The notes beneath the pieces were generated by a model. It was not told the DNA's origin, made no database searches, and was given only the letters and a program-made list of their open reading frames with translations. A stretch of 37,011 nucleotides of DNA from an uncultured Gemmatimonadota bacterium (lineage in GTDB: Bacteria > Blakebacterota > Blakebacteria > Blakebacterales > Blakebacteraceae), in contig CAZNUA010000036.1 in the NCBI GenBank assembly GCA_964576115.1, forward strand, positions 1-37,011. Direction: 5' to 3'. This document shows positions 11,237-37,011 of this stretch, piece after piece. Position 1 is the stretch's first letter; each line of letters begins with the position of its first letter. Both the position numbers and the translations under genes were made by a program.

Positions 11237-11313
11237 TGGTACGCCCGAGAGGAGTCGAACCCCTAACCTTCTGATCCGTAGTCAGATGCTCTATCCAATT
11301 GAGCTACGGGCGC
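11237..11313 (-). tRNA. tRNA-Arg (anticodon ACG)
   Basis: GCGCCCGTAGCTCAATTGGATAGAGCATCTGACT-ACG-GATCAGAAGGTTAGGGGTTCGACTCCTCTCGGGCGTACCA; 77 nt with encoded CCA. TTGACA lies at 11385-11380 upstream. Confidence 0.97.
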
Positions 11314-19708: not shown

Positions 19709-19783
19709 TGGTGGCCTGTACGGGATTCGAACCCGTGTTACCGGCGTGAGAGGCCGGCGTCCTCACCCCTAGACGAACAGGCC
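19709..19783 (-). tRNA. tRNA-Glu (anticodon CTC)
   Basis: GGCCTGTTCGTCTAGGGGTGAGGACGCCGGCCT-CTC-ACGCCGGTAACACGGGTTCGAATCCCGTACAGGCCACCA; 75 nt. Confidence 0.97.
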
Positions 19784-19785
19784 GG

Positions 19786-19808
19786 ATGCTGGCTGCGGGG
19801 CAGGGATT
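19786..19808. repeat. 23-bp exact direct repeat of the tRNA-Gln 3' end plus 4 trailer nt
   Basis: atgctggctgcggggcagggatt occurs at 19786-19808 and 19887-19909. Confidence 0.92.
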
Positions 19809-19890
19809 GACTCCCCTTCGGGTCGCGATCCCACGCCCCGCTCCGCATGATGCGCCCGGAACAACCTGTGCAATCCGATCGCAGTAATGC

Positions 19891-19964
19891 TGGCTGCGGG
19901 GCAGGGATTCGAACCCCGATTCCACGGTCCAGAGCCGCGTGTCCTGCCATTGGACGACCCCGCA
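19891..19964 (-). tRNA. tRNA-Gln (anticodon CTG)
   Basis: TGCGGGGTCGTCCAATGGCAGGACACGCGGCT-CTG-GACCGTGGAATCGGGGTTCGAATCCCTGCCCCGCAGCCA; 74 nt. Confidence 0.97.
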
Positions 19965-20074: not shown

Positions 20075-21517
20075 TCAATTCTGCCCGCGCAGCCAGGTGA
20101 TCGCCCGCTCCATCCGCGCGCCGACTTCCTCCCGGCCCAGAAGTTCGATCAGCTCGAAGAGCCCGGGGCCGTAGTGGCGGCCGGTCAGGGCCACCCGCAC
20201 CGGGTGGATGTACTTGCCCGCGCCGACCTCTTCGGCTTCGGCCAGACTGCGGATCACCCCCTCGATCCCGTCGTGGTCCCAGGCAGCGAGATCGCGCAGT
20301 CCTGCGGCTACCTTCTGCAAGCGTGGGATGACCTCGGCCGGGTTCTTCCAGCGTTTGGCCACCGATTCCTCTTCATACTCTTCGGGCGCAGTGAAAAAGA
20401 ACCGGCCTGCCCCGGAGAATTCATCGGCCAGGCGAACCCGTTCTTTCAGCAGGTCCACCACCCGGGTGAGGTAGCTGCCGTCATAGCCCTCGATATCGAT
20501 ACCGGCCTTCTCGAAAGCACCGCGGGCCACCGCCACCAGCTCGGCGGAAGGGAGCAGGTTCAGGTACTGGCCGTTGAGCCACTCCAGCTTGGTCTCGTCG
20601 AATGCAGCCGGTTTGCGGTTCAGGCCCTCGATCGCGAAACGGCTGACGAGCTCATCGCGGCGCATGAACTCGGTATCATCCTTGGGCGACCAGCCGAGCA
20701 GGGCCAGAAAGTTCACCACCGCCTCGGGCAGATAACCCTTCTCGCGGTACTCCCCCACCGAGGTGGCGCCGTGCCGCTTCGAAAGTCGCTTGCCATCCAT
20801 GCCCAGGATGAGCGGCAGATGGGCGAAGGCGGGGATCGGATACCCCAGAGCCCGGTAGAGCAGGATCTGTTTGGGGACGTTGTTGAGGTGATCGTCACCC
20901 CGGATGACGTGGGTGATACGCAGCCAGGCGTCGTCCACCACGCAGGCCAGCTGGTAGGTGGGCTGCCCGCCGGTGCGCAGCAGGACGAAGTCCTCGATCT
21001 GCTCGCCGGCGATGCTGACATAGTCTTTCAGCGCGTCGTGAAAGGAGATCGTTTCGTCCTTGGGGACCTTGAAACGGATCGCGAAAGGCTCCCCCGCTCC
21101 GGCCCGCCGCTCTGATTCCTCGCGTCCGATCAGCCGGCAGCGGCCGTCGTAAGTCCACGACTCGCCCTTCTCGCGGGCTGCCAGCCGCTCGGCCTCGAGT
21201 TCGTCGGCATCGCAGAAACAGCGGTACGCATGCCCCGAGGCCAGCAGAGAATCGGCTGCCTCGCGGTAGGCTTCGAGCCGCTGGCTCTGGAAAACCGGCC
21301 CCTCGTCCCAGTCCAACCCGAGCCAGGTCAGCCCGTCGGTGATGGCGGTGACCATTTCGTCGGTGGAGCGTTCGAGGTCGGTATCCTCGATGCGCAGGAT
21401 GAAGACACCCCCCTCGTGGCGGGCGAAGAGCCAGTTGAACAGGGCCGTGCGTGCTCCACCCACATGCAGATAGCCGGTCGGGCTGGGAGCGAATCTGACG
21501 CGCGGTTTCTCGCTCAT
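20075..21517 (-). CDS. gltX: Glutamate--tRNA ligase
   Basis: RFAPSPTGYLHVGGARTALFN (HIGH), RIEDTD, ITHVIRGDDH and KRLSKRHG (KMSKS). The anticodon-binding domain is present. Confidence 0.97.
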   Translation of the reverse strand: MSEKPRVRFAPSPTGYLHVGGARTALFNWLFARHEGGVFILRIEDTDLERSTDEMVTAITDGLTWLGLDWDEGPVFQSQRLEAYREAADSLLASGHAYRCFCDADELEAERLAAREKGESWTYDGRCRLIGREESERRAGAGEPFAIRFKVPKDETISFHDALKDYVSIAGEQIEDFVLLRTGGQPTYQLACVVDDAWLRITHVIRGDDHLNNVPKQILLYRALGYPIPAFAHLPLILGMDGKRLSKRHGATSVGEYREKGYLPEAVVNFLALLGWSPKDDTEFMRRDELVSRFAIEGLNRKPAAFDETKLEWLNGQYLNLLPSAELVAVARGAFEKAGIDIEGYDGSYLTRVVDLLKERVRLADEFSGAGRFFFTAPEEYEEESVAKRWKNPAEVIPRLQKVAAGLRDLAAWDHDGIEGVIRSLAEAEEVGAGKYIHPVRVALTGRHYGPGLFELIELLGREEVGARMERAITWLRGQN

Positions 21518-21681: not shown

Positions 21682-21774
<93 letters not shown>

Positions 21775-25836: not shown

Positions 25837-26883
25837 CTACCGGCGCAGGCAAAGGTAAACGAAACCGGTGGTTCGTTCCTCACCCGACTCACAGTTGCCG
25901 ATAAGCAGGTCGAGTCGACCGTCCGAGTTCCAGTCGGCCACCCCCAGGCGCAACCGGTAGCCCGGGATAGGGCTGTTCTCTTTCCACCAGGCGGTGAATT
26001 CGCTGTATGAGCCTTCGGTCGGCACCGGCTCGCCGGTGAACACGCTCACCCCGGCCTCGAAGGTGCCCCCGGCCCGGCCGCGGAAGAAGGTCACCCCGGC
26101 GGCCTCGTCCCCGACCAGGATGTCGAGGTAGCCGTCGCCGTCCCAGTCGACCGGCAGTGGGTGCGATTTCGACTGCACTTCCATCGGCTGCCCGCCGGCG
26201 GTGAGCGGTTCGCGCTCCCCGAACTCATACGCGGTCGGGGTGCCCCGGTTCAGGTTCAGGTAGACCTGTCCCATGACGCTGCCGACGACCATGTCGAAGT
26301 CGCTGTCAGAGTCCCAGTCGGTGAAATGGGCCGCGCTCATCCAGCGCCAGAGCCCCATCTCGTCGTCGGGATCCTCGGTGATCACTTCGGGAATGACTTC
26401 GCCGGCTGCCAACCCTCTAGGCGTACCGGGGAAAATGTACACGTCACCGGGGCTGTACTCACCGGTGATCACATCCTCGTAACCGTCGCCGTTCAGATCC
26501 ACAAACTGTGGAGTGAAACCGATGCATCATGACGGGTGCATGGCGGCGTCCTCTCCGGCCGCCTGAAGGAAGAAGAAGTCATCGAACTGCGGCTCGGCGT
26601 CGGTGCCGACGTTGAGGTAGACCCGGCAGCGGCCGGCCGTTTCTCCTACCCCGAACTGCCCGACCAGCAAATCCTTGCGGCCGTCACGGTCGACATCCCA
26701 GACAAAGGGTGCCGCATGGCCGATATCGACCTCGATTGGTTCACCGCCGGCAGTGAGCCGTACCGGAGCCTCGAGTCGGGGCAGGTCGGCGCCGGCACCG
26801 CAGCCGGCCAGGAGCATCAGAGCCGTCGGGACGAACACACCGGTAGACAGGGTTCGGTACACTGGACGCTTCATGGGGGGCAC
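25837..26883 (-). CDS. FG-GAP/VCBS-repeat lipoprotein with in-frame TGA (codon 119); candidate selenoprotein, 348 aa
   Basis: ORFs 26527..26883 and 25837..26502 are in the same frame, separated only by TGA: ..AAMHPS-TGA-CIGFTPQFVDLNGDG.. Lipobox LAGC. Five DxDxDG repeats (DVDRDG, DLNGDG, DWDSDS, DWDGDG, DWNSDG). Confidence 0.8.
26491..26519 (-). promoter_or_regulatory. SECIS-like stem-loop immediately 3' of the in-frame TGA
   Basis: After UGA: lower stem UUCA/UGAA (+10..13/+32..35), upper stem UCCACA/UGUGGA (+15..20/+24..29), apical loop GUU starting at +21. Confidence 0.6.
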
Positions 26884-27264: not shown

Positions 27265-28116
27265 GTGAGTGTCGTGAAGATCATCTTTCTGGTCCTGGCA
27301 GGGATCATGGTTTGTGCAGGGCTGTGGTTGGGCCTGCGCCGCCTGCGTAGTGAACGCCGCTACGGTCTTCTGAAAACAGAACTGCGGTCCGAACCGGAGC
27401 GCTCCCGGACCGGAGACGTCTTTCGAACCGAACTCGTCGAAGACCTGCCCGACCCGGCCCGCCGCTTTCTCTCTCACGCCATCAAGCCCGGCACGCCGCT
27501 GGCCGGGGGGGCCGAGATCGTCCTGGAAGGCAGCATGCGGCAGTCACCGGATACCCCACGCATGTCGATCCGGGCCGAAGAGATTCTGGTTCCGGGCCGG
27601 GGATTCCTCTGGGATGCGCGCGCCCGCCGGGGACCGGTCACGGTCCGGGTCGTCGATCACTATCTCGGCGGCGAGGGAGCGGTCGAGATTGCCCTTTTCG
27701 GGTTCATACCGCTGGGGCGCGAGAGCGGCCCCGACATCGCCCGTTCCTCGCGGGGGCGGCTGGCGGCCGAGTCGATCTGGGCACCCACCGCCCTTCTCCC
27801 CGGTCCGGGGGTGCGGTGGGAACCGGTCGACGACGAGCACGCCCGGGTGGTGCTGACTGTCGAGGGGGAGGAAACCGCCCTGACCCTGACCATCGACGAT
27901 ACCGGCCGCTGCCGGGAGGTGACGATGCAGCGCTGGGGCGATGCCGGGGTCGAATCCTTCCAGTCACTGCCGTATGGTTTCGCGATCGAAGAAGAAGTGA
28001 GTTCGGAGGGAATCACGGTCGGACGACTTTTCACCGGGGGCTGGTTCTACGGTACCGATCGCTACGATCCCGAGAACGCCAGCACGTTTACCGTCGTCGA
28101 GATCCGCTTTCGCTGA
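27265..28116 (+). CDS. DUF6544-like membrane-anchored protein
   Basis: N-terminal TM, then LPDPARRFLSHAIKPG..LEGSMR..GFLWDA..DHY..GRLAAESIWAPTALLP..VRWEPVDD..RWG. GTG start with GGAGG RBS. Confidence 0.72.
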   Translation: MSVVKIIFLVLAGIMVCAGLWLGLRRLRSERRYGLLKTELRSEPERSRTGDVFRTELVEDLPDPARRFLSHAIKPGTPLAGGAEIVLEGSMRQSPDTPRMSIRAEEILVPGRGFLWDARARRGPVTVRVVDHYLGGEGAVEIALFGFIPLGRESGPDIARSSRGRLAAESIWAPTALLPGPGVRWEPVDDEHARVVLTVEGEETALTLTIDDTGRCREVTMQRWGDAGVESFQSLPYGFAIEEEVSSEGITVGRLFTGGWFYGTDRYDPENASTFTVVEIRFR

Positions 28117-29770
28117 ACCGGGACAGGATTTCCTGTTCGTCATCGACCAGCAGCACGGTCCGATTCCCGGCCGTTCTCGTCCCGCTCTGCAGTCCGGCGA
28201 CATCGCTCGGGATCGTTTCCGCCCCCTCGCCGACCGGCAGAAAGACTTCGGCCGTCGTGCCCCGGCCCGGCTCCGAAAACAGGGTGATCGCCCCCCCGTG
28301 ATTTTTCACGATCCCGTAGACCATCGACAGTCCAAGACCCAAGCCTGCATCCTCTTCCTTGGTCGTGAAGAACGGTTCAAAGACACGGTCGAGGACCTTT
28401 TCGTCCATACCGCATCCTTCATCGCCGATCGTCAGCCGCACGGCCCGCTCGGCCAGCGGTTCCATGGCCTGGGCGACATGGTCTGGGGGTGTGAGTTCGT
28501 CCAGGCGGACCGTGATCGCACCACCGCCGGGCCCGAGCGCATCGCGGGCATTCAACAGCAGGTTCATGATCATCTGACGGATCTGGGCGGCATCGGCCTC
28601 GACGACCGGCAGGCGTGAGACGGGAGTGAAGTCCAGGACAATCTTCGGATCGAGAGTTTCGGTGAGCATACCGGTGATCTCACCCACGATCTCGTTCAGA
28701 TCGACCGGTGCGACCTCGACCTTGCCCCGGCGGGCGAAACCGAGGAGCTGCTCTGTCAGCTCCGCACCCCGGAAGGCGCCGAGTCTGATCTTTTCGATCT
28801 TCGCTGTCTGTTCCGGATTCAGGGAGCCACGCTGCAGCAACAGTTCGGAGTAGCCGAGAATGATACCGAGCAGGTTGTTGAAATTATGGGCGATCCCGCC
28901 GGCCAGCGTACCCAGAGATTCAAGCCGCTGCAGCTGTTCGAGCTGCCGGGTGCGCTCCTCGACTCTCTTCTCGAGAGTGGCGTTGATGGCGGCGATTTCC
29001 TCGAGCGAGTCCTTGAGTGCGCTCTGCATGCTGGTGAAAGAGCTGTACAGGATCCCGACCTCGTCGTTGCTCGTTCCGGTGAGTTCGTGGTCCAGATCGC
29101 CGGCTGCGACAGCACGGGTCTGTTCCACCAGTCGATCGATCGGTTGGGTAATGCGGCGACTGAAGAGCGTGGTCAGTCCCCAGCCCAGGAGGATCGCCGC
29201 CAGGGCGCTGATGATGATCCCCCAGCGCATGCGTGCTACCTCCCGCAGGGTCGGACGCATGCTCACCCCCGCGAAGACATACCCCCAGGTGACGCTTTCT
29301 CCCACCGGACGGATCGGTAGAGTGTAGACCCAGACCCGATCGGTCACCGTACCGATCTTCAGACGCTCCTCACTCACGTCTGTGGACCAATCCCGGCTGT
29401 TCCACAAGCTCACCAGTTCATCGGTACGCGCGCCTTCGGCATATACCTGCGACTCGAGCAGACGGTCGCTGGCATCGAAGACCGCCAGCCAGAGGACATC
29501 CTCGAGATCGGACTCGTGGGCAAGATAAAACCTGATGCTGCTCGTGTTGTAGGTCAGCAGGGCGGGCGTGATCAGGGTGACCAATCCCTCGAGGCGCTCG
29601 CGGGCGTTATCACGGTCGGAGGTGAATAACCGGGCCTGGGCAAAGAAATACAGGAAGGCGAGCAGCAGGATCGCCAGTCCGGCAGAGGTTCCGGCAATCA
29701 GCAGGTTCAGTTTCCAGCGCAGGGGAAACGCGGGCTGGCGTTGTTTTCTGCGGGTGCTTTTCGCCGGCAC
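28088..29770 (-). CDS. Membrane sensor histidine kinase (TM-periplasmic-TM-HAMP-HisKA-HATPase) with truncated receiver domain
   Basis: HAMP (ITQPIDRL..DEVGIL), H-box GGIAHNFNNLL, NLLLNARDA, DEGCGM, FEPFFTTK and GLGLGL. It ends TVLLVDDEQEILSRFSESGSRRR*. Confidence 0.9.
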   Translation of the reverse strand: MPAKSTRRKQRQPAFPLRWKLNLLIAGTSAGLAILLLAFLYFFAQARLFTSDRDNARERLEGLVTLITPALLTYNTSSIRFYLAHESDLEDVLWLAVFDASDRLLESQVYAEGARTDELVSLWNSRDWSTDVSEERLKIGTVTDRVWVYTLPIRPVGESVTWGYVFAGVSMRPTLREVARMRWGIIISALAAILLGWGLTTLFSRRITQPIDRLVEQTRAVAAGDLDHELTGTSNDEVGILYSSFTSMQSALKDSLEEIAAINATLEKRVEERTRQLEQLQRLESLGTLAGGIAHNFNNLLGIILGYSELLLQRGSLNPEQTAKIEKIRLGAFRGAELTEQLLGFARRGKVEVAPVDLNEIVGEITGMLTETLDPKIVLDFTPVSRLPVVEADAAQIRQMIMNLLLNARDALGPGGGAITVRLDELTPPDHVAQAMEPLAERAVRLTIGDEGCGMDEKVLDRVFEPFFTTKEEDAGLGLGLSMVYGIVKNHGGAITLFSEPGRGTTAEVFLPVGEGAETIPSDVAGLQSGTRTAGNRTVLLVDDEQEILSRFSESGSRRR

Positions 29771-29774
29771 GAGC

Positions 29775-31340
29775 TTACCGCCTCCACCAGAATCGTTCGC
29801 ACTGCATATTGCCCGTTCCCAACGGACTCAAGGCTACCCCCTCGAGACCCTCCCGGGTGACATGGACCGAGGCCGTGAAATCGAGAGGAATGATCGGCAC
29901 GTCAGCCAGGATGATCTCCTCGGCCCGGTTCACCAGTTCGAGACGCTCATCACCATCGACGGTAACCAGCGCCTCTTCCAGCAATCGATTCACCTCTTCG
30001 TTCCGGTACGCGAAATAGTTCCCCCACCCTTCGCTGTGAAAGAGATCGTACAGGAAATGGCTCGCGCTCGGCAGATCGGCCGCCCAGGCCATGGTGAAAA
30101 GGGGGGCTGTGCCGGCCTCGATGCGGGCATCGAACTCGGACCAATCCCGGGGACGATAGTCGGTTTCGATTCCGATCCGCGCCCAGGCTTCCCTGATCTT
30201 CAGGTCTTCTTCGTACACCACGTCGGGCGTGCCGACAACGTAATACGGCAGCGGTACGCGGGGAGGTGAAAAGTCACCGGCTCCGGAACCGGCTTCTGCT
30301 TCGACCGGCCGGAAGAGATCGGGGCGATCGATATAGCCGGCCATCCCGGGCGGTATGAGAGCAGTAGCCCGACGGAAGAGCGGATCGTCGGCTGCGATGT
30401 AGTTCTCCCAATCGATCGCTGCCGCGAGCCGGCGGCGCAGGTTCGAGTCGGCGACATCGGGGTGATCGAGGTTGAAGCCGAGGAATTCGAGCGTCATCCC
30501 CTGGCGGCGATGAATACGTACATCCTCCCGCTCGACGTAGCGATCCCAATGCCAGGTAGGCATTTCGACCAGATCGATCTCACCCGCCTCGAACAGCTCC
30601 AGTTCGGTTTCGGCCTCATAGACCGGAACGATACGGATATCGATGGAATCGAGGAAGGCGGGGGATCCGTAATAGTCCTCGAAGCGGGTCAGGACGATTC
30701 TTTCCCGACTCCGTCCGGCCAGGCGGAAGGGACCTGCTCCCTCGCCTGCAGGTCCGGTGATCTTCCACGGCTCGGTCGCCATGATCGCCAGCAGATCGGG
30801 TGCGGGGCGGTCGAAGATGATTTCGACCGTACGCGGCGTGCGGGCCCGCAGGCCTCCGATCCGGGCGCTACGGCCGGCCAGGTACTCGTCCAGACCCGAG
30901 AGTGACTGCAGGGTGGCATGGCCGATGACCGGCTCAAGGGCATTACGGCGGGCCAGTTTGGTGATCGAAGCGACCACATCGGCCGAGGAAATCGGCCGGC
31001 CCGTGTGGAAGGTCAGGTTATCGCGCAGATGAAAGACAAAGTGCCGGAAATTCTCGTCGATCTCCCACCGCTGAGCCAGTCCGGGCATGACATTGAGACT
31101 GACATCGAACTCCACCAGACCTTCGTACATCTGATTGATCAAGCAGGCTTCCTGGGAGCTTGAAAAATCGACGGGACTGAGGGTCGCCATGGGCAGCAGA
31201 GCGAGACGGAGCACACCCCCCGAGCGGGGTGTGGGTCCCCTGACCGGTTCGGGCGAGCGGGGAGCCAGCGCCAGGGCGAGCGCAATGAGAGCTACCCAGG
31301 CGGCGGCGTAGACGGCCAGCGATCGTTTCGAGATACTCAT
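29775..31340 (-). CDS. Family 5 (OppA/DppA-like) ABC substrate-binding protein
   Basis: GGVLRLA..MYEGLVEFD..PGLAQRWEI..FHLR..FHTGRPISSADVVAS, GAGPF and AEEIILADVPIIPL. It ends 4 nt before the kinase start. Confidence 0.92.
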   Translation of the reverse strand: MSISKRSLAVYAAAWVALIALALALAPRSPEPVRGPTPRSGGVLRLALLPMATLSPVDFSSSQEACLINQMYEGLVEFDVSLNVMPGLAQRWEIDENFRHFVFHLRDNLTFHTGRPISSADVVASITKLARRNALEPVIGHATLQSLSGLDEYLAGRSARIGGLRARTPRTVEIIFDRPAPDLLAIMATEPWKITGPAGEGAGPFRLAGRSRERIVLTRFEDYYGSPAFLDSIDIRIVPVYEAETELELFEAGEIDLVEMPTWHWDRYVEREDVRIHRRQGMTLEFLGFNLDHPDVADSNLRRRLAAAIDWENYIAADDPLFRRATALIPPGMAGYIDRPDLFRPVEAEAGSGAGDFSPPRVPLPYYVVGTPDVVYEEDLKIREAWARIGIETDYRPRDWSEFDARIEAGTAPLFTMAWAADLPSASHFLYDLFHSEGWGNYFAYRNEEVNRLLEEALVTVDGDERLELVNRAEEIILADVPIIPLDFTASVHVTREGLEGVALSPLGTGNMQCERFWWRR

Positions 31341-31383: not shown

Positions 31384-34083
31384 CTATTCGGTATTCAGTA
31401 CCCGCACCGGATCGATCCGTGAAGCACGCAGGGCCGGCAGCAGGGTGGCTCCAACAGCCGTGACGATGAGCACGGCCACGACCCCGAACCAGGTGATCGG
31501 ATCGAGAGTCGAGGTCTCATAGAGGACCTCGCTCAGGATCGAACTCAGAGCCAGCGCCGCCAGCAGGCCCATTCCGGTCCCGAGCGCGGCCAGTCCGAGC
31601 CCCTGTCCGAGCACCAGCTGGACGATATCACGCCCCGTGGCTCCGACCGCGATCCGCACCCCGATCTCGGGGCCCCGCCGGCTGACCGTATAGCTCATCA
31701 CGCCGACCACTCCCGCGGCGGCGAGCAGCAGGGCTACGGCCGCAAACAGGGAGATCACCAGGGCTGTGGAACGGTATCCGGCGATCGAGTCATTCCGGAT
31801 CCCGTCGTAGCTGCGGATGTCGTAGACGGGCAGTTCGGGATCGAGTTCGCCGACGACCCGGCGCAGGATGGTTGCCGCATCGGCCACCGCGACTGGCGTG
31901 TGCATGACGATCGGTACTTCGAAGATCGGAGGCAGGAGCCACATCGGCATGTAGATCGCATAGCGTTCTTCGGCCGTCAGTCTGCGCTCGCGCAGTGAAG
32001 CGGCAATCCCGATGATGATCGAGGAGCGCTCGGGTGTGGCCCAGAGGTTGACTGTTTTGCCGACTGCGTCGCCCTCGGGGTAGAGGCGGGCAGCCAGGTT
32101 CTCACTGATGACGCACACCCCCCACGCCTGCTCGACATCCTCGAAGGTGAAGTCCCGCCCGGCGTGCAGGGCGATTCCCATGGTGGCGAAGTAGCCGGGC
32201 ATGACCATGCGCCAGTCGGCCGAGAGCCGTTCTTCGCCTTCCTCGAGCGCCCGGGAAGCGGGATCGACCTCCATCGTGGCATTCAGACCGCCGTAGAGGG
32301 CCGTGCCCCCCTGAATGAGGGAGGCGTTTTCGATCTCGGGCACGGCGGTGAGGTTGTGGACCAGGTCGGAGAGAAATGCGTAGGTGGGCATGGTCTCGCT
32401 GTAGCGCGACTCGGGCAGGGTAATGCCGGCACAGATCCGGTCCTCGACCTCGAAACCCGGATCCACGTTACGGACCGCATGGAAGGAACGCAGCAGCAGC
32501 CCGGCACCGATCAGCAGTACGATCGATAGCCCGATCTCGACCACCACCAGCCCCCGGCGCAGCAGGACCGCCCGCCGGCTGCTCCCGCCATGCCGGCCTC
32601 CCTCACGCAGCACTTCGGCGGGCCGGGCCGAACTGGCCTGCAGGGCCGGAATCAGACCGGAGAGAGTCCCGGCCCCGATCGTGATGAGCAGGGTGAAGAG
32701 CAGGACCGGCCAGTCGATGCCGATCTCAGCCAGCCGGGGTACTGCATCGGACGCGATCGCGGGCAGGGCCTCGATCCCCCAGAGTGCCAGCATGATGCCG
32801 ATGAGGCCGCCGCCCAGGGCGAGCAGGAGGGATTCGCTGACCACCTGGCGGATCGCCTGTCCCCGGCCGGCTCCGAAGGCGGTCGCGATGGCGATCTCGC
32901 GCCGCCGGCCCAGGGCCCGGGCGAGCAGCAGGCTGGCCAGATTCACGCAGGCGATGAGCAGCAGCAAGCCGACCGCGGCCATGATCATCCAGAGGGAGGA
33001 ACGTGTCGCAGCGCCGACTAACTGGGAGTCGAAAGAGCGCACGGTCACGCTCCAGCCGGCGTTCGATTCCGGGTACTCCCGGCCGAGTTCGGCGGCCACG
33101 GCCGCCAGATCGTCCCAGGCCTGCTCGACCGTCACCCCCGGATGCATCCGCCCCAGCAGGTTGACGAGGTGATTGTCCCGCGGCCAGGCGGGATCGGGCC
33201 GTAACGGGATCCAGATATCGTAGTTGCCGGGGAAATTGTCGAGTTCGGGCAGCACGCCGACGACGGTCCACGGCTCGCCATCGAGATTCAGGGTCGAGCC
33301 TACGACCTCGGCCACCCCGCCCAGATGGGTCTGCCAGAATTTCGAAGAGATCATCGCCACCCGCGTACCCGCTCCGGCGGCATCCTCCTCGGGGGTGAAG
33401 GAGCGTCCCAGGACAGGCGTAATGCCGAGCATGGCCGGCAGGTTGTGCGTGACCCGGAAGCCCTGCGCCCGGACCGGATGCTCCCCCGGCAGAGCCACAA
33501 AGGTGTGCCAGCTTATGGCCGCCAGTTCGGCGAAGGTGGTGTTGCCATCCCGGAAGCTCAGGTAATTGGAATCCGAGGAAGAGGAGGTCAAACGGCCGCG
33601 CTCCTCGTTCCGTTCCCAGATGAAAACCAGTTCCTCGGGATCGGGATAAGGCAGCGGAGTCAGAACGGCGCCGTTCAGAATCGAGAAGATGATCGTGTTC
33701 ACGGCGATACCCAGCGCCAGGAGCAGAGTCGCAATGGTCGTAAAACCCGGGTTGCGGCGCAGGCGGCGGGCGGCGAATTGCAGATCGCGCCCGATCTCAC
33801 CCAGGATCTCTTTGAGCCGGCGGCGCCGGAGTTCCTCTTCGCCCGATATCTGCAGATCCTTTCTGATCTCGGCCACCCGGCCGAACACCTCCCGGGCGCG
33901 GGCCCGGGCCTGGTCCTCGCTCAGGCCCTGTTCGCGCAGCTCGGCGATCCGGCTCTCGAGGTGAAAATGCAGTTCGTCGTCGATATTGCGCTCCAGGTGC
34001 CGGCCATTCTCCTCGAGCCGGAAGGAATCCCGCCACCGTTCTTCACCGTGCCGGCCGCGATTGCCGCTCTGCTCCTCAACCAC
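31384..34083 (-). CDS. ADOP-type duplicated MacB/FtsX ABC permease with N-terminal prefix domain
   Basis: IDDELHFHLE..GLSEDQARARA..FG prefix; DLQFAARRLRRNPGFT..LALGIAVNT; LLLLIACVNLASLLLAR..RRREIA; VSRRGPEIGVRIAVGA; PALRASRIDP. Confidence 0.93.
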   Translation of the reverse strand: MVEEQSGNRGRHGEERWRDSFRLEENGRHLERNIDDELHFHLESRIAELREQGLSEDQARARAREVFGRVAEIRKDLQISGEEELRRRRLKEILGEIGRDLQFAARRLRRNPGFTTIATLLLALGIAVNTIIFSILNGAVLTPLPYPDPEELVFIWERNEERGRLTSSSSDSNYLSFRDGNTTFAELAAISWHTFVALPGEHPVRAQGFRVTHNLPAMLGITPVLGRSFTPEEDAAGAGTRVAMISSKFWQTHLGGVAEVVGSTLNLDGEPWTVVGVLPELDNFPGNYDIWIPLRPDPAWPRDNHLVNLLGRMHPGVTVEQAWDDLAAVAAELGREYPESNAGWSVTVRSFDSQLVGAATRSSLWMIMAAVGLLLLIACVNLASLLLARALGRRREIAIATAFGAGRGQAIRQVVSESLLLALGGGLIGIMLALWGIEALPAIASDAVPRLAEIGIDWPVLLFTLLITIGAGTLSGLIPALQASSARPAEVLREGGRHGGSSRRAVLLRRGLVVVEIGLSIVLLIGAGLLLRSFHAVRNVDPGFEVEDRICAGITLPESRYSETMPTYAFLSDLVHNLTAVPEIENASLIQGGTALYGGLNATMEVDPASRALEEGEERLSADWRMVMPGYFATMGIALHAGRDFTFEDVEQAWGVCVISENLAARLYPEGDAVGKTVNLWATPERSSIIIGIAASLRERRLTAEERYAIYMPMWLLPPIFEVPIVMHTPVAVADAATILRRVVGELDPELPVYDIRSYDGIRNDSIAGYRSTALVISLFAAVALLLAAAGVVGVMSYTVSRRGPEIGVRIAVGATGRDIVQLVLGQGLGLAALGTGMGLLAALALSSILSEVLYETSTLDPITWFGVVAVLIVTAVGATLLPALRASRIDPVRVLNTE

Positions 34084-34570: not shown

Positions 34571-34747
34571 ATACGGCCTGCCGATCTCATATGTTTCACC
34601 CATTCAGCCCCCGCCCGGTCCGGGCAAAGAAAGAACAGGCAGATGTACGTAACTATTCGTATAACCAGCCGTACGGTGTCGATACATGGTGAGTTCAAAC
34701 ACATGGCGATTTCAAACCGGTTCGTATCCCAACCAGCGAGGCAGCCC

Positions 34748-37011
34748 ATGGACACTATTCTCCGCAATGCCAGATTCGCCCTGCGCCAGCTCACACGCAA
34801 ACCGGGCTTCTCGCTGATCCTCATCATCACCATCGCGGTCACGATCGGCGGAAACGTGGCCATCTTCGCAGTGTTCGAGGGCGTTGTCCTGCGACCTCTG
34901 CCCTGGCCTGAGTCCGACCGGCTCCTGGCCATCTGGGAGAGTCAGGATCAGAGCCGGTCGCGCCAGCCTTTCGCCGGCCCCGACTACCTGGCCGTGTGCG
35001 AACAGACCGAGAGTCTGTCCGGAGCGGGAGCAGCCGACACCCGCTGGGTCAACCTCTCCGGCGGGCAGGAACCGGTCCGGATCCGTTGCGGTTTCTGTTC
35101 CGCGAGCCTCATGGAACTGCTGGGGGTTCGGCCCCTGCACGGACGGCTCTTCGGGCAGAGTGAAGAGATTGCGGGCAACCACCAAGTCGTCGTTCTCAGC
35201 CACGCTCTCTGGCAGAGCCACTTCTCCGGCGATCCACAGGTCATGGGAACCGCCATCACGCTGGACGGCGAACCGTGGCAGGTCATCGGGATCATGCCCG
35301 AGTCCTTCCGGTTCCCGACCCCCTGGGGCGGACGGGATGAAACCCGGCTCTGGGCGCCGCTGACCGGCGCCCTGATCGGGACCAATCGCAGCGCACACTG
35401 GTTGGCCGTCTACGGGCGCCTGGCGCCGGGGGCGAGCGTCGAGCAGGCTGAAGCCGAACTCGATCTCATCGCCCGCCGGCTGGCCGGAGCGTGGCCCGAA
35501 ACGAATGCCGAGACCCGGATGTGGACCGAGCCGATCATGGCCCGCTCGATCGGCGGAGCCCGATCGTTGATCGCTTTCCTGCTGGGGATTGTGGGTCTCA
35601 TTCTCCTGATGGCCTGTGCCAACACGGCCGGCATGCTGTTGTCACGGAGCCTGAACCGCACCGGGGAATTCGCCCTGCGGGCCGCCCTGGGCGCAGACCG
35701 GCGGAGCCTGAGCGGGCAGCTCCTGATCGAGAGTCTGGCCGTGGCGGCGATCGGCGGACTGGCCGGGATCGCGCTGGCGTACGGGGGGGTCAACGTCCTG
35801 CGGGTGCTCATGCCCGCCGATTTCCCCCGGGCCGATCTGCTTGCCGTGAACCTGCCCGTTCTCGGATTCGCTGCTCTGATCGTCTGCATGACCGGTTTGC
35901 TCATCGGTCTGGCACCTGCTCTCTTCGCCTCCCGGTCCGATCTGGCGGCGGCCATCAGACGTACCCGGAGCCGGTCGACAGGGGCCCGAAACCGGCCGCT
36001 CGCATTCCTGACCTCGGGGCAGATGGCTATCGGATTTGTGCTGGTGAACACCGCCCTCGTCCTGACGGCGAGTTACGCCGGAGTCATGAACCAGTCGTTT
36101 AACTTCGACCTCGACGAGGTCGTGGTGACCGAAATCATCCTGGCCGGAGAGAGTTACGACACCCCCCTTGAACGCCGGATCTTCCATGAGCAACTGGTGC
36201 AGCGGGCGCGAGCCTGTCCGGGGGTGAGGAACGCCGGGATCGCCAGCAAGCTGCCCCTCAAGGGCGGTTCCAACAGCTGGGTCATCGTCGGCGGGCGTGA
36301 ACCGGAATCGACCTCACGGGGCCCCCTGGTGGAACACAAGTTCATCGGCGAGGGTTTTCTCGAGACGATGGGAATCGACCTGCTGGCGGGCCGGACGTTC
36401 GACGAGCGCGACATGGCCCTGGCGGCCGGGCATGCCGGCGTCAGTAGAAGGGACGTGGAACTGCCCGTGATCATCAATCGGGTCATGGCCGAGACGATGA
36501 TGCCGGCGGACGACCCGCTGGGCCAGGAGATCCGTACCTTTGAAAGTGACGAGGATAACTGGCACGGCCGGGTCATCGGGATCGTGGAGAACGTCCGGCA
36601 GTGGGGTCCCGAAGTCGAGCCCCTGCCCGAACTCTACCTGCCGCAGACCGCCGAGCCGTGGGGTCCCTTCTGGACGAAACTGGCGGTTCGGACCGACGGC
36701 GATCCCGCCGGCCTGGCTCAGGATCTCAGGGCGGTGCTGGACACCATCGATCCCGCCCTGCCTCTTTCGACGCCGGTCAGCATGGGACAGATTCTCGCTG
36801 ACACCACCGCCGGCCGCCGCTTTTCGCTGATCCTGATCGGGCTGTGCGCGGGCGTCGCCCTGCTCCTCATCATCACCGGAACCTACGGAGTGATCTCTTT
36901 CGCCGTTTCCCGCCGCCTGCACGAGGTCGGCGTGCGCATGGCCCTGGGCGCCGATCGGGGGCGGGTGGCGCTGCTTTTTCTCGGCCGGGCGGGCCGGCTC
37001 GTTCTGCCCGG
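34748..37011 (+). CDS. Second ADOP-type ABC permease, running off the right edge
   Basis: Not in the ORF track. MDTILRNARFALRQLTRKPGFSLILIITIAVTIGGNVAIF..LRPLPWPESDRL, LILLMACANTAGMLLSR, and near the end AVSRRLHEVGVRMALGA in the same frame as the ATG. Confidence 0.92.
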   Translation, partial: MDTILRNARFALRQLTRKPGFSLILIITIAVTIGGNVAIFAVFEGVVLRPLPWPESDRLLAIWESQDQSRSRQPFAGPDYLAVCEQTESLSGAGAADTRWVNLSGGQEPVRIRCGFCSASLMELLGVRPLHGRLFGQSEEIAGNHQVVVLSHALWQSHFSGDPQVMGTAITLDGEPWQVIGIMPESFRFPTPWGGRDETRLWAPLTGALIGTNRSAHWLAVYGRLAPGASVEQAEAELDLIARRLAGAWPETNAETRMWTEPIMARSIGGARSLIAFLLGIVGLILLMACANTAGMLLSRSLNRTGEFALRAALGADRRSLSGQLLIESLAVAAIGGLAGIALAYGGVNVLRVLMPADFPRADLLAVNLPVLGFAALIVCMTGLLIGLAPALFASRSDLAAAIRRTRSRSTGARNRPLAFLTSGQMAIGFVLVNTALVLTASYAGVMNQSFNFDLDEVVVTEIILAGESYDTPLERRIFHEQLVQRARACPGVRNAGIASKLPLKGGSNSWVIVGGREPESTSRGPLVEHKFIGEGFLETMGIDLLAGRTFDERDMALAAGHAGVSRRDVELPVIINRVMAETMMPADDPLGQEIRTFESDEDNWHGRVIGIVENVRQWGPEVEPLPELYLPQTAEPWGPFWTKLAVRTDGDPAGLAQDLRAVLDTIDPALPLSTPVSMGQILADTTAGRRFSLILIGLCAGVALLLIITGTYGVISFAVSRRLHEVGVRMALGADRGRVALLFLGRAGRLVLP

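Follow-up and report, generated by a model that had tools for sequence, protein, structure and literature searches.

One gene with an internal UGA codon

The window analysed here is a whole stretch of 37,011 nt from an uncultured Gemmatimonadota bacterium. On its minus strand, between positions 25837 and 26883, lie two open reading frames (ORFs) that share one frame and are separated by a single TGA: an upstream ORF of 118 amino acids (26527-26883) and a downstream ORF of 221 amino acids (25837-26502). Together they constitute one gene of 348 codons, including one UGA that very probably encodes selenocysteine (Sec). The gene starts with a GTG at 26883, from which residues are numbered here, or alternatively with an ATG at 26874 (the start used by database ORF P0126), and ends with a TAG at 25839-25837. 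Around the site the minus strand reads CAC CCG TCA TGA TGC ATC GGT TTC ACT CCA CAG TTT GTG GAT CTG. The TGA (26527-26529) corresponds to residue 119 (U119) and the adjoining TGC (26524-26526) to Cys120, the vicinal partner of the putative Sec. Both the split frame and the cysteine codon had been pointed out in the initial annotation and are read directly from the sequence. Read through, the frame yields 348 residues with one internal stop and no further stops or frameshifts; the product is the uninterrupted five-repeat protein that the same annotation had described, with five DxDxDG-type loops. Consensus promoter and terminator scans of the segment 25600-27200 found nothing.

The TGA is not a sequencing error, on the basis of contigs from two public runs belonging to two studies, X3 (47x) and X4 (43x), which are identical over 26400-26650 and carry the same TGA; these contigs are not flagged as source in the run list but, being near-identical, may still represent the source DNA. 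Run X6 gave no cover of the stretch and run X5 covered only its end.

In public protein sets the gene is split into two fragments, as had been anticipated from the sequence. A first protein search with the read-through product returned 1790 matches. Among the best 120 of these, 84 are C-terminal pieces of 200-290 residues beginning just past the TGA position, 32 are full-length proteins with Cys-Cys at the corresponding column and 4 are of other kinds. As many as 34 of the best 120 begin at one and the same residue, because gene callers take as start the GTG at 26500-26502, which opens the downstream ORF and belongs to the 3' arm of the hairpin described below. Two of the downstream pieces bear the NCBI name "VCBS repeat-containing protein". 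The upstream ORF, used as a separate query, retrieved 144 short proteins at E <= 1e-5; among the 120 matches listed, 100 stop at the very residue that precedes the TGA in the window, and another 14 stop no more than one residue away from it.

Exactly these two products are what gene callers yield in hundreds of records, as would be expected if the UGA terminated a 118-residue lipoprotein, and the 221-residue ORF were translated separately from the GTG at 26502 (two genes, or one gene with a regulated stop). Some termination at UGA is indeed expected when selenium is scarce. However, neither piece makes a complete fold, the structural model (see below) being a single five-bladed propeller closed by both; the downstream piece lacks a signal peptide; its GTG lies inside the hairpin, in keeping with the earlier remark that this ORF has no sensible start of its own; and the Cys-containing homologues are single chains. 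We give this arrangement very little probability.

Homologues carry either Cys or TGA at the column of residue 119. Both C119 and C120 are invariant in the 15 full-length homologues aligned (15/15; Pedobacter, Chitinophaga, Planctomycetota and metagenomic sequences). Among relatives of the window's organism, the family was found in 4 of 41 genomes, and all eight matches have exactly one TGA, located at this column. A scan of one genome per species contributed 80 further loci. Over the resulting 90 family sites in 88 loci, the column is TGA in 72, Cys (TGC or TGT) in 17 and neither in one; the 72:17 ratio should not be read as a census, the 80 scan loci being the best tblastn matches to a Sec-form query. 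These counts were made after hand correction of four rows that tblastn had shifted. The TGA forms occur in Planctomycetota, Verrucomicrobiota, Armatimonadota, WOR-3, Desulfobacterota-labelled metagenome-assembled genomes (MAGs) and the window's own lineage, many of the loci being MAG contigs whose taxon labels are possibly wrong. Nearly all TGA sites have a Cys codon, TGC or TGT, in the next place, and Cys occupies position 120 in 83 of the 86 rows of alignment A3. In a tree of the 86 rows, built with the Sec column left out, the Sec/Cys state requires at least 14 changes, at least six of which are forced by well-supported branches, and Sec and Cys forms appear as sister pairs at supports of 99 and 95. 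Repeated Sec/Cys interchange of this kind is the usual signature of real selenoproteins.

A lone in-frame TGA looks like a nonsense mutation, and the two ORFs could be taken for the decaying remnants of an FG-GAP gene. Against such a pseudogene stand the recurrence of the TGA column in 72 of 90 copies from several phyla, the lack of any other stop or frameshift, and a conserved, covarying hairpin. In addition, the ratio of nonsynonymous to synonymous substitution rates, measured against a copy from the same genus, is 0.19 for the part ahead of the TGA and 0.25 for the part behind it; therefore both halves are maintained by purifying selection. The probability left for a pseudogene is negligible, the lowest that we assign to any of the alternatives.

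Multiple copies of the family can reside in one genome. The window's own genome has a second copy (G000:C6:2256-3269, locus L017:1501-2835), 32% identical, whose TGA stands at the same column but precedes an Asn codon (U-N); it retains the hairpin and has a long helical C-terminal extension. This copy is one of the eight matches mentioned above. TGA-containing copies are found in tandem on single contigs, four in L064 (1891, 3765, 5169 and 6441) and three in L084 (2316, 3057 and 4989), and several other genomes have three to five separate loci (for instance, the records behind L022/L025/L027/L067 and L064/L072/L076/L084/L085). A profile search with A3 against 1.84 billion representatives gave 225,802 matches at E <= 0.001, dominated by giant multi-repeat FG-GAP proteins (568-7398 amino acids for the best 150), and yielded no usable family size.

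The downstream hairpin and the selenocysteine machinery

A hairpin with arms UCCACA and UGUGGA and a GUU loop (26498-26512, loop at 26506-26504, minus strand) follows the UGA, with 20 nt between the UGA and the loop. The G that opens the loop (26506) is the 21st base past the TGA, which agrees with the G-first loop 21 nt downstream of the initial annotation. The element is contained within the coding sequence, over the codons for P-Q-F-V-D. A single-sequence fold weakly suggests a lower stem, UUCA...UGAA, extending the hairpin to 26492-26517. The minimum free energy (MFE) is -11.5 kcal/mol for the 48 nt after the UGA and -7.6 kcal/mol for the isolated 27-mer.

The 72 TGA sites align almost free of gaps in this region, and the base pairs of the hairpin were counted across them. 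Pairs were named by the analyst, since RNAalifold gave no consensus. Paired bases occupy 87% of the hairpin cells, as compared to 20-52% when the partners are slid by one to three columns. The covariation score is 0.160, versus 0.081 in shuffled alignments, and was reached by none of 500 shuffles. Compensatory changes are best seen in the third pair (columns 30-38 of alignment A2), which is A-U in 50 sites, G-C in 15, G-U in 2 and C-G in 1; in two sites U-A replaces the usual fourth pair. At the codon level, the third base of the Pro codon, a synonymous position, pairs with the second base of a Val or Ala codon in 59 of the 65 Sec rows that are in register: 46 rows combine an A with GTN three codons on, and 13 a G with GCN. 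The same pairing is found in 3 of 13 Cys rows. Two WOR-3 copies have a different peptide at this place, yet they form a 6-bp stem with a GUU loop. In the fixed register, at least five of the six pairs are present in 57 of 72 Sec sites versus 3 of 17 Cys sites. Altogether, the hairpin covaries and goes with the Sec forms.

The published consensus model of the bacterial Sec insertion sequence (bSECIS) specifies a loop of 3-9 nt, a stem of 4-16 bp, a G at loop position 1 or 2, a distance of 16-37 nt between UGA and loop and an MFE of at most -7.5 kcal/mol (PMC13188914; structural terms in the legend to its Fig. 2). The window's hairpin agrees with all four constraints (GUU, 6 bp, 20 nt, and -11.5 kcal/mol over 48 nt). 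So do 62 of 72 Sec sites, versus 4 of 17 Cys sites.

Several observations weigh against the UGA being a Sec codon served by this hairpin. Taken in isolation, the short hairpin has an MFE of only -5.7 kcal/mol. Folded as a single sequence, the 73 nt that follow the TGA do not outperform shuffled sequences (z = -0.04), and RNAalifold found no consensus structure on the 72 sites. Under MFE folding, 10 of 72 Sec sites fail the bSECIS test and 4 of 17 Cys sites pass it; therefore the consensus model is permissive. In the Escherichia coli fdhF element the critical G-U is at positions 23-24 from the U of the UGA; in the window it is at 24-25. To these points should be added the sampling of the loci and their taxon labels, mentioned above. 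With a permissive threshold, an Rfam search of the whole stretch returned no more than two matches, both noise and both located elsewhere (12.6 and 12.5 bits).

The window's genome (G000, 93.66% complete) carries the complete set of Sec genes: selA (407 bits), selB, selC, whose tRNA-Sec scores 66 bits and has anticodon TCA, and selD (330 bits). SelA was found in all eight other TGA-form genomes tested. It is also present in three, plus one partially, of five Cys-form genomes tested; therefore the Cys forms are not confined to genomes without Sec machinery. The selD gene is fused to an N-terminal class-V aminotransferase domain of the NifS or selenocysteine-lyase type (G000:C45, locus L099:304-2598).

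Because Cys is the residue in homologues lacking the TGA, the codon could conceivably be read by a near-cognate tRNA (for Cys or Trp) or under a reassigned code, with no Sec involved. What argues against this is the complete Sec machinery of the genome, the presence of SelA in 9 of 9 TGA-form genomes tested, the window's own included, and the hairpin, with its SECIS-like spacing, its G-first loop and its association with the TGA forms. As to reassignment, 19 of the window's 39 ORFs end in TGA (a hand count on a mechanical ORF list, which is not a gene set). Readthrough other than as Sec thus seems very unlikely.

The tests that bear on the original suggestion of a selenoprotein, namely the state of the column in homologues, covariation of the hairpin, the bSECIS model, the Sec genes and the TGA in other contigs (about 45x), all came out in its favour. 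On the strength of these comparisons, we consider it highly probable that the internal UGA encodes Sec. The UGA at 26529-26527 would be decoded by the SelA/SelB/SelD/tRNA-Sec system, and decoding would be directed by the short intragenic hairpin, whose G-first loop starts 20 nt after the UGA.

With TIGR01553, formate dehydrogenase alpha was not found in the 93.66%-complete genome. This enzyme is the most widely distributed bacterial selenoprotein family (PMC13188914). Within the window's genome, one of the main users of the Sec machinery may be the propeller family.

Fold, neighbourhood and possible function

The N-terminal segment (26800-26883) is a putative signal peptide, with a match to the lipobox motif, LAGC (residues 25-28, 26811-26800), and a predicted mature Cys28; the product is probably exported and lipid-anchored. 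Five calcium-type loops follow, identified by alignment and motif and spaced by about 60 residues: DxDxDGxxD in repeat 1 (D63-D71, 26671-26697), DxNxDGxxD in repeat 2 (D129-D137, 26473-26499), DxDxDxxxD in repeat 3 (D189-D197, 26293-26319), DxDxDGxxD in repeat 4 (D246-D254, 26122-26148) and DxNxDGxxD in repeat 5 (D317-D325, 25909-25935). Their DxDxDG-type motifs suggest that the protein binds calcium. A conserved His56, within GHAAP, lies just upstream of the first loop and a conserved Arg310 just upstream of the fifth. U119-C120 directly precedes the G-x-x-P strand of repeat 2, and its equivalent in repeat 1 is D53-I54. The initial annotation had matched the residues after the TGA to this position of repeat 1 in a register that differs from the present one by one residue.

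The read-through protein matches two Pfam families over their gathering thresholds, FG-GAP_3 (PF13517; 80.5 bits, cut-off 26.9) and FG-GAP (PF01839; 45.5 bits, cut-off 22.1), with both parts of the protein covered. An AlphaFold2 single-chain model, computed from the 86-row alignment, consists of one domain that spans both ORFs (pLDDT 93, pTM 0.88). According to this model, the product is a five-bladed beta-propeller of FG-GAP/VCBS repeats, of which neither ORF alone would make a complete fold. In an exhaustive structural comparison, the top matches were five-bladed propellers of glycoside hydrolase families GH62, GH43, GH159 and GH32 (Z 14-18, root-mean-square deviation 3.5-4 Å, 8-10% identity). 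Foldseek against the PDB returned distant FG-GAP propellers alone (TcB, UmbA4, the Psathyrella lectin PVL, CRTAC1 and integrin alpha; TM scores 0.33-0.45), and a sequence profile search of the PDB gave generic repeat matches alone, including CRTAC1 and integrins. The CRTAC1 alignment stops short of the Cys-Cys column.

Beyond the repeat scaffold, the polar residues conserved in the 86 rows are H56 (68 rows, plus 10 with Tyr), U/C119 (85), C120 (83) and R310 (73), each of which is in a loop ahead of a blade's inner strand. In integrins the face bearing such loops is opposite the calcium loops, and we take this to hold for FG-GAP propellers. The vicinal Sec119-Cys120 would be in the loop preceding the inner strand of blade 2.

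We give even odds to the U-C pair serving the cell envelope as a redox centre of the selenol/thiol type. Sec119 would be the attacking residue and Cys120 its usual resolving partner, the two joining in a vicinal selenenylsulfide, and an electron relay of the DsbD type would return the centre to its reduced state. The substrate may be something brought in by TonB-dependent receptors, whose genes lie beside Cys forms in several loci of Proteobacteria and Bacteroidota.

The genes surrounding the family members provide the evidence for this role. A DsbD_N-like (DsbD-alpha-like) domain is fused or directly downstream, or a full DsbD gene adjoins, in 14 of 88 loci. Sec as well as Cys forms are concerned: the link is present in Sec forms L020, L042 and L044, and the domain is fused or adjacent in Cys forms L026, L034, L041, L043, L062, L063, L069, L070, L077 and L090; in L091, also a Cys form, the link is through the full DsbD gene next door. 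Inspection of four fused domains (P0054, P0056, P0109 and P0122) showed that a C-x4-6-C pair is kept. Further arrangements are seen in Cys-Cys forms from Proteobacteria and Bacteroidota MAGs. In L091:32-6785, one strand carries genes for a TonB-dependent receptor, for the propeller and for a complete DsbD; in L073:624-6002, two propellers are followed by a thioredoxin-like gene; in L079:54-4419, the propeller comes after a SusC/SusD pair; and in L077:1-4092 and L090:65-4797, TonB-dependent receptors adjoin the propeller. In the window's genome, DsbD_TM and DsbD_N genes are located elsewhere, on other contigs.

The case for a redox role is weakened on several counts. The window contains no redox neighbour: the genes around the propeller encode an M14 peptidase, a DUF6544 protein, a histidine kinase, a solute-binding protein and MacB-like permeases. 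Across the 88 loci no neighbour is widely shared, the second-largest cluster being made up of antisense ORFs over the propeller gene itself, and the DsbD_N link is limited to the 14 loci listed above. Only the repeat register suggests that H56, U119, C120 and R310 surround one face. Finally, Cys120 is replaced in five copies (U-N in L017, U-D in L038, U-G in L051 and L058, C-V in L071); therefore the vicinal bond is not obligatory, and residue 119 is the essential one. A sixth variant, L088, has G-C at the motif and no chalcogen at residue 119.

The main rival to a redox centre is a binding site for soft metals or metalloids such as Hg, Cu or As, the protein then being a trap or chaperone of the envelope. 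Mer proteins bind mercury through vicinal Cys pairs. The TonB-dependent receptors that flank Cys forms L077, L090 and L091, and the SusC/SusD genes that flank L079, would suit such a function, and vicinal C-U motifs are catalogued for the MerB-like SaoL, HgcA, metal-binding MbdU and CopZ-type proteins (PMC13188914). On the other hand, the recurrent partner is a DsbD-alpha-like, thioredoxin-like or full DsbD protein, which points to electron transfer, and the neighbourhoods examined showed no genes for metal resistance. We therefore hold the metal site to be rather unlikely, while noting that redox and soft-metal roles are not mutually exclusive.

A broader proposal builds on the redox role. 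The proteins could form the first beta-propeller selenoenzyme family, large, exported, five-bladed and present in multiple copies, with a Sec-Cys selenenylsulfide centre fed by a relay of the DsbD type, and could be a main reason why Planctomycetota, Verrucomicrobiota, Armatimonadota and the window's lineage keep Sec machinery. We put this forward tentatively, as slightly less probable than the redox centre itself.

Other features of the loci deserve mention. In Planctomycetota loci L033:11-2803 and L067:26-2803, large proteins combining an N-terminus like that of extracytoplasmic function (ECF) sigma factors with WD40 or FG-GAP repeats are encoded just upstream of Sec-form genes. In the window, 28088-31340 contains genes for a HAMP histidine kinase and, next to it, a family-5 solute-binding protein, two divergent MacB-like FtsX permease genes occupy 31384-34083 and 34643-37009, and ordinary genes for tRNA-Arg, tRNA-Glu, tRNA-Gln and tRNA-Ser and for a glutamyl/glutaminyl-tRNA synthetase are found at 11237-11313, 19709-19964, 21683-21774 and 20075-21517.

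If the UGA is indeed a Sec codon, Sec-aware gene calling would correct hundreds of public records. With the family held as two fragments, the selenoproteomes of several poorly studied phyla are under-counted. That family members are time and again fused to, or encoded beside, DsbD-alpha, thioredoxin-like or TonB-receptor partners points to an unrecognised reductive activity of the envelope. The chemistry of the family is testable in natural Cys-Cys versions from cultured Pedobacter, Chitinophaga and Novipirellula.

Relation to known selenoproteins and propellers

The catalogue of 119 prokaryotic selenoprotein families (Table 1 of a 2026 review, PMC13188914) has no FG-GAP, VCBS or propeller entry, and nowhere does the main text of that review contain the words FG-GAP, VCBS, propeller, repeat or Planctomyc. 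Neither the scaffold, a calcium-loop FG-GAP propeller, nor the adjacent U-C motif that it would carry is in this catalogue. The same words are absent from the available parts of the BSepDB paper (PMC13326102), which there reports 111 families or subfamilies compiled from earlier reports, and of the deep-Sep paper (PMC12013277). Literature searches for FG-GAP, VCBS or propeller selenoproteins, and for selenoproteins of Planctomycetota, brought up nothing relevant, though supplementary lists could hold an entry under another name. No NCBIfam model, selenoprotein models included, matched over its cut-off, the scores being 28.5 bits for XAC2610_fam (cut-off 35) and 19.8 for FusH (cut-off 999). The initial annotation had judged both the scaffold and the exported location to be unlike classical selenoenzymes. 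This holds for the propeller, which none of the catalogued families has; the location does not set the protein apart, as exported selenoproteins of DsbA-like, DsbG-like, TlpA-type, TonB-receptor and outer-membrane types are listed already (PMC13188914).

With these exported thiol:disulfide selenoproteins (DsbA-like, DsbG-like, TlpA-type and Prx-like), the window's protein shares the predicted export, the interchange of Sec and Cys and possibly a coupling to DsbD. It differs from them in having a propeller with adjacent U-C, where they have a thioredoxin fold with UxxC. The window's gene lacks the DsbD N-terminal domain (PF11412), which in 14 of 88 family loci is fused to the propeller or encoded next to it.

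The solved FG-GAP/VCBS structures (integrin alpha, CRTAC1, PVL, TcB and UmbA4) resemble the protein in their PF13517/PF01839 repeats and DxDxDG loops. Integrin alpha and the PVL lectin are seven-bladed propellers, whereas the window's protein has five repeats and a five-bladed model, with TM scores of 0.33-0.45 to such structures; seven blades are not a criterion of the Pfam families. No Sec has been described in any of these structures.

Adjacent chalcogen residues can form an eight-membered ring that is used in redox chemistry. Animal thioredoxin reductase has a vicinal Cys-Sec at its C-terminal GCUG, and pyrroloquinoline quinone (PQQ) methanol dehydrogenase is a propeller with a vicinal disulfide at the active site. 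The order is C-U and terminal in the reductase, U-C and internal in the window's protein, and there is no homology between the two; nor is there homology to the dehydrogenase, and no flavin or PQQ signature was seen in the window's protein.

The closest likeness is to selenoprotein genes of the E. coli fdhF type, which have an in-frame UGA and a stem-loop just downstream within the coding sequence. The arrangement matches theirs in the 20 nt that lead to a small loop starting with G and then U, in the existence of Cys homologues and in the accompanying selA, selB, selC and selD. It departs from theirs in the propeller family and fold, and in a minimal hairpin of 5-6 bp embedded in the codons of a conserved P-Q-F-V-D peptide. 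In conclusion, the gene at 25837-26883 represents a new family on a scaffold that appears new with respect to the 119 catalogued families, within a known mechanism of decoding.

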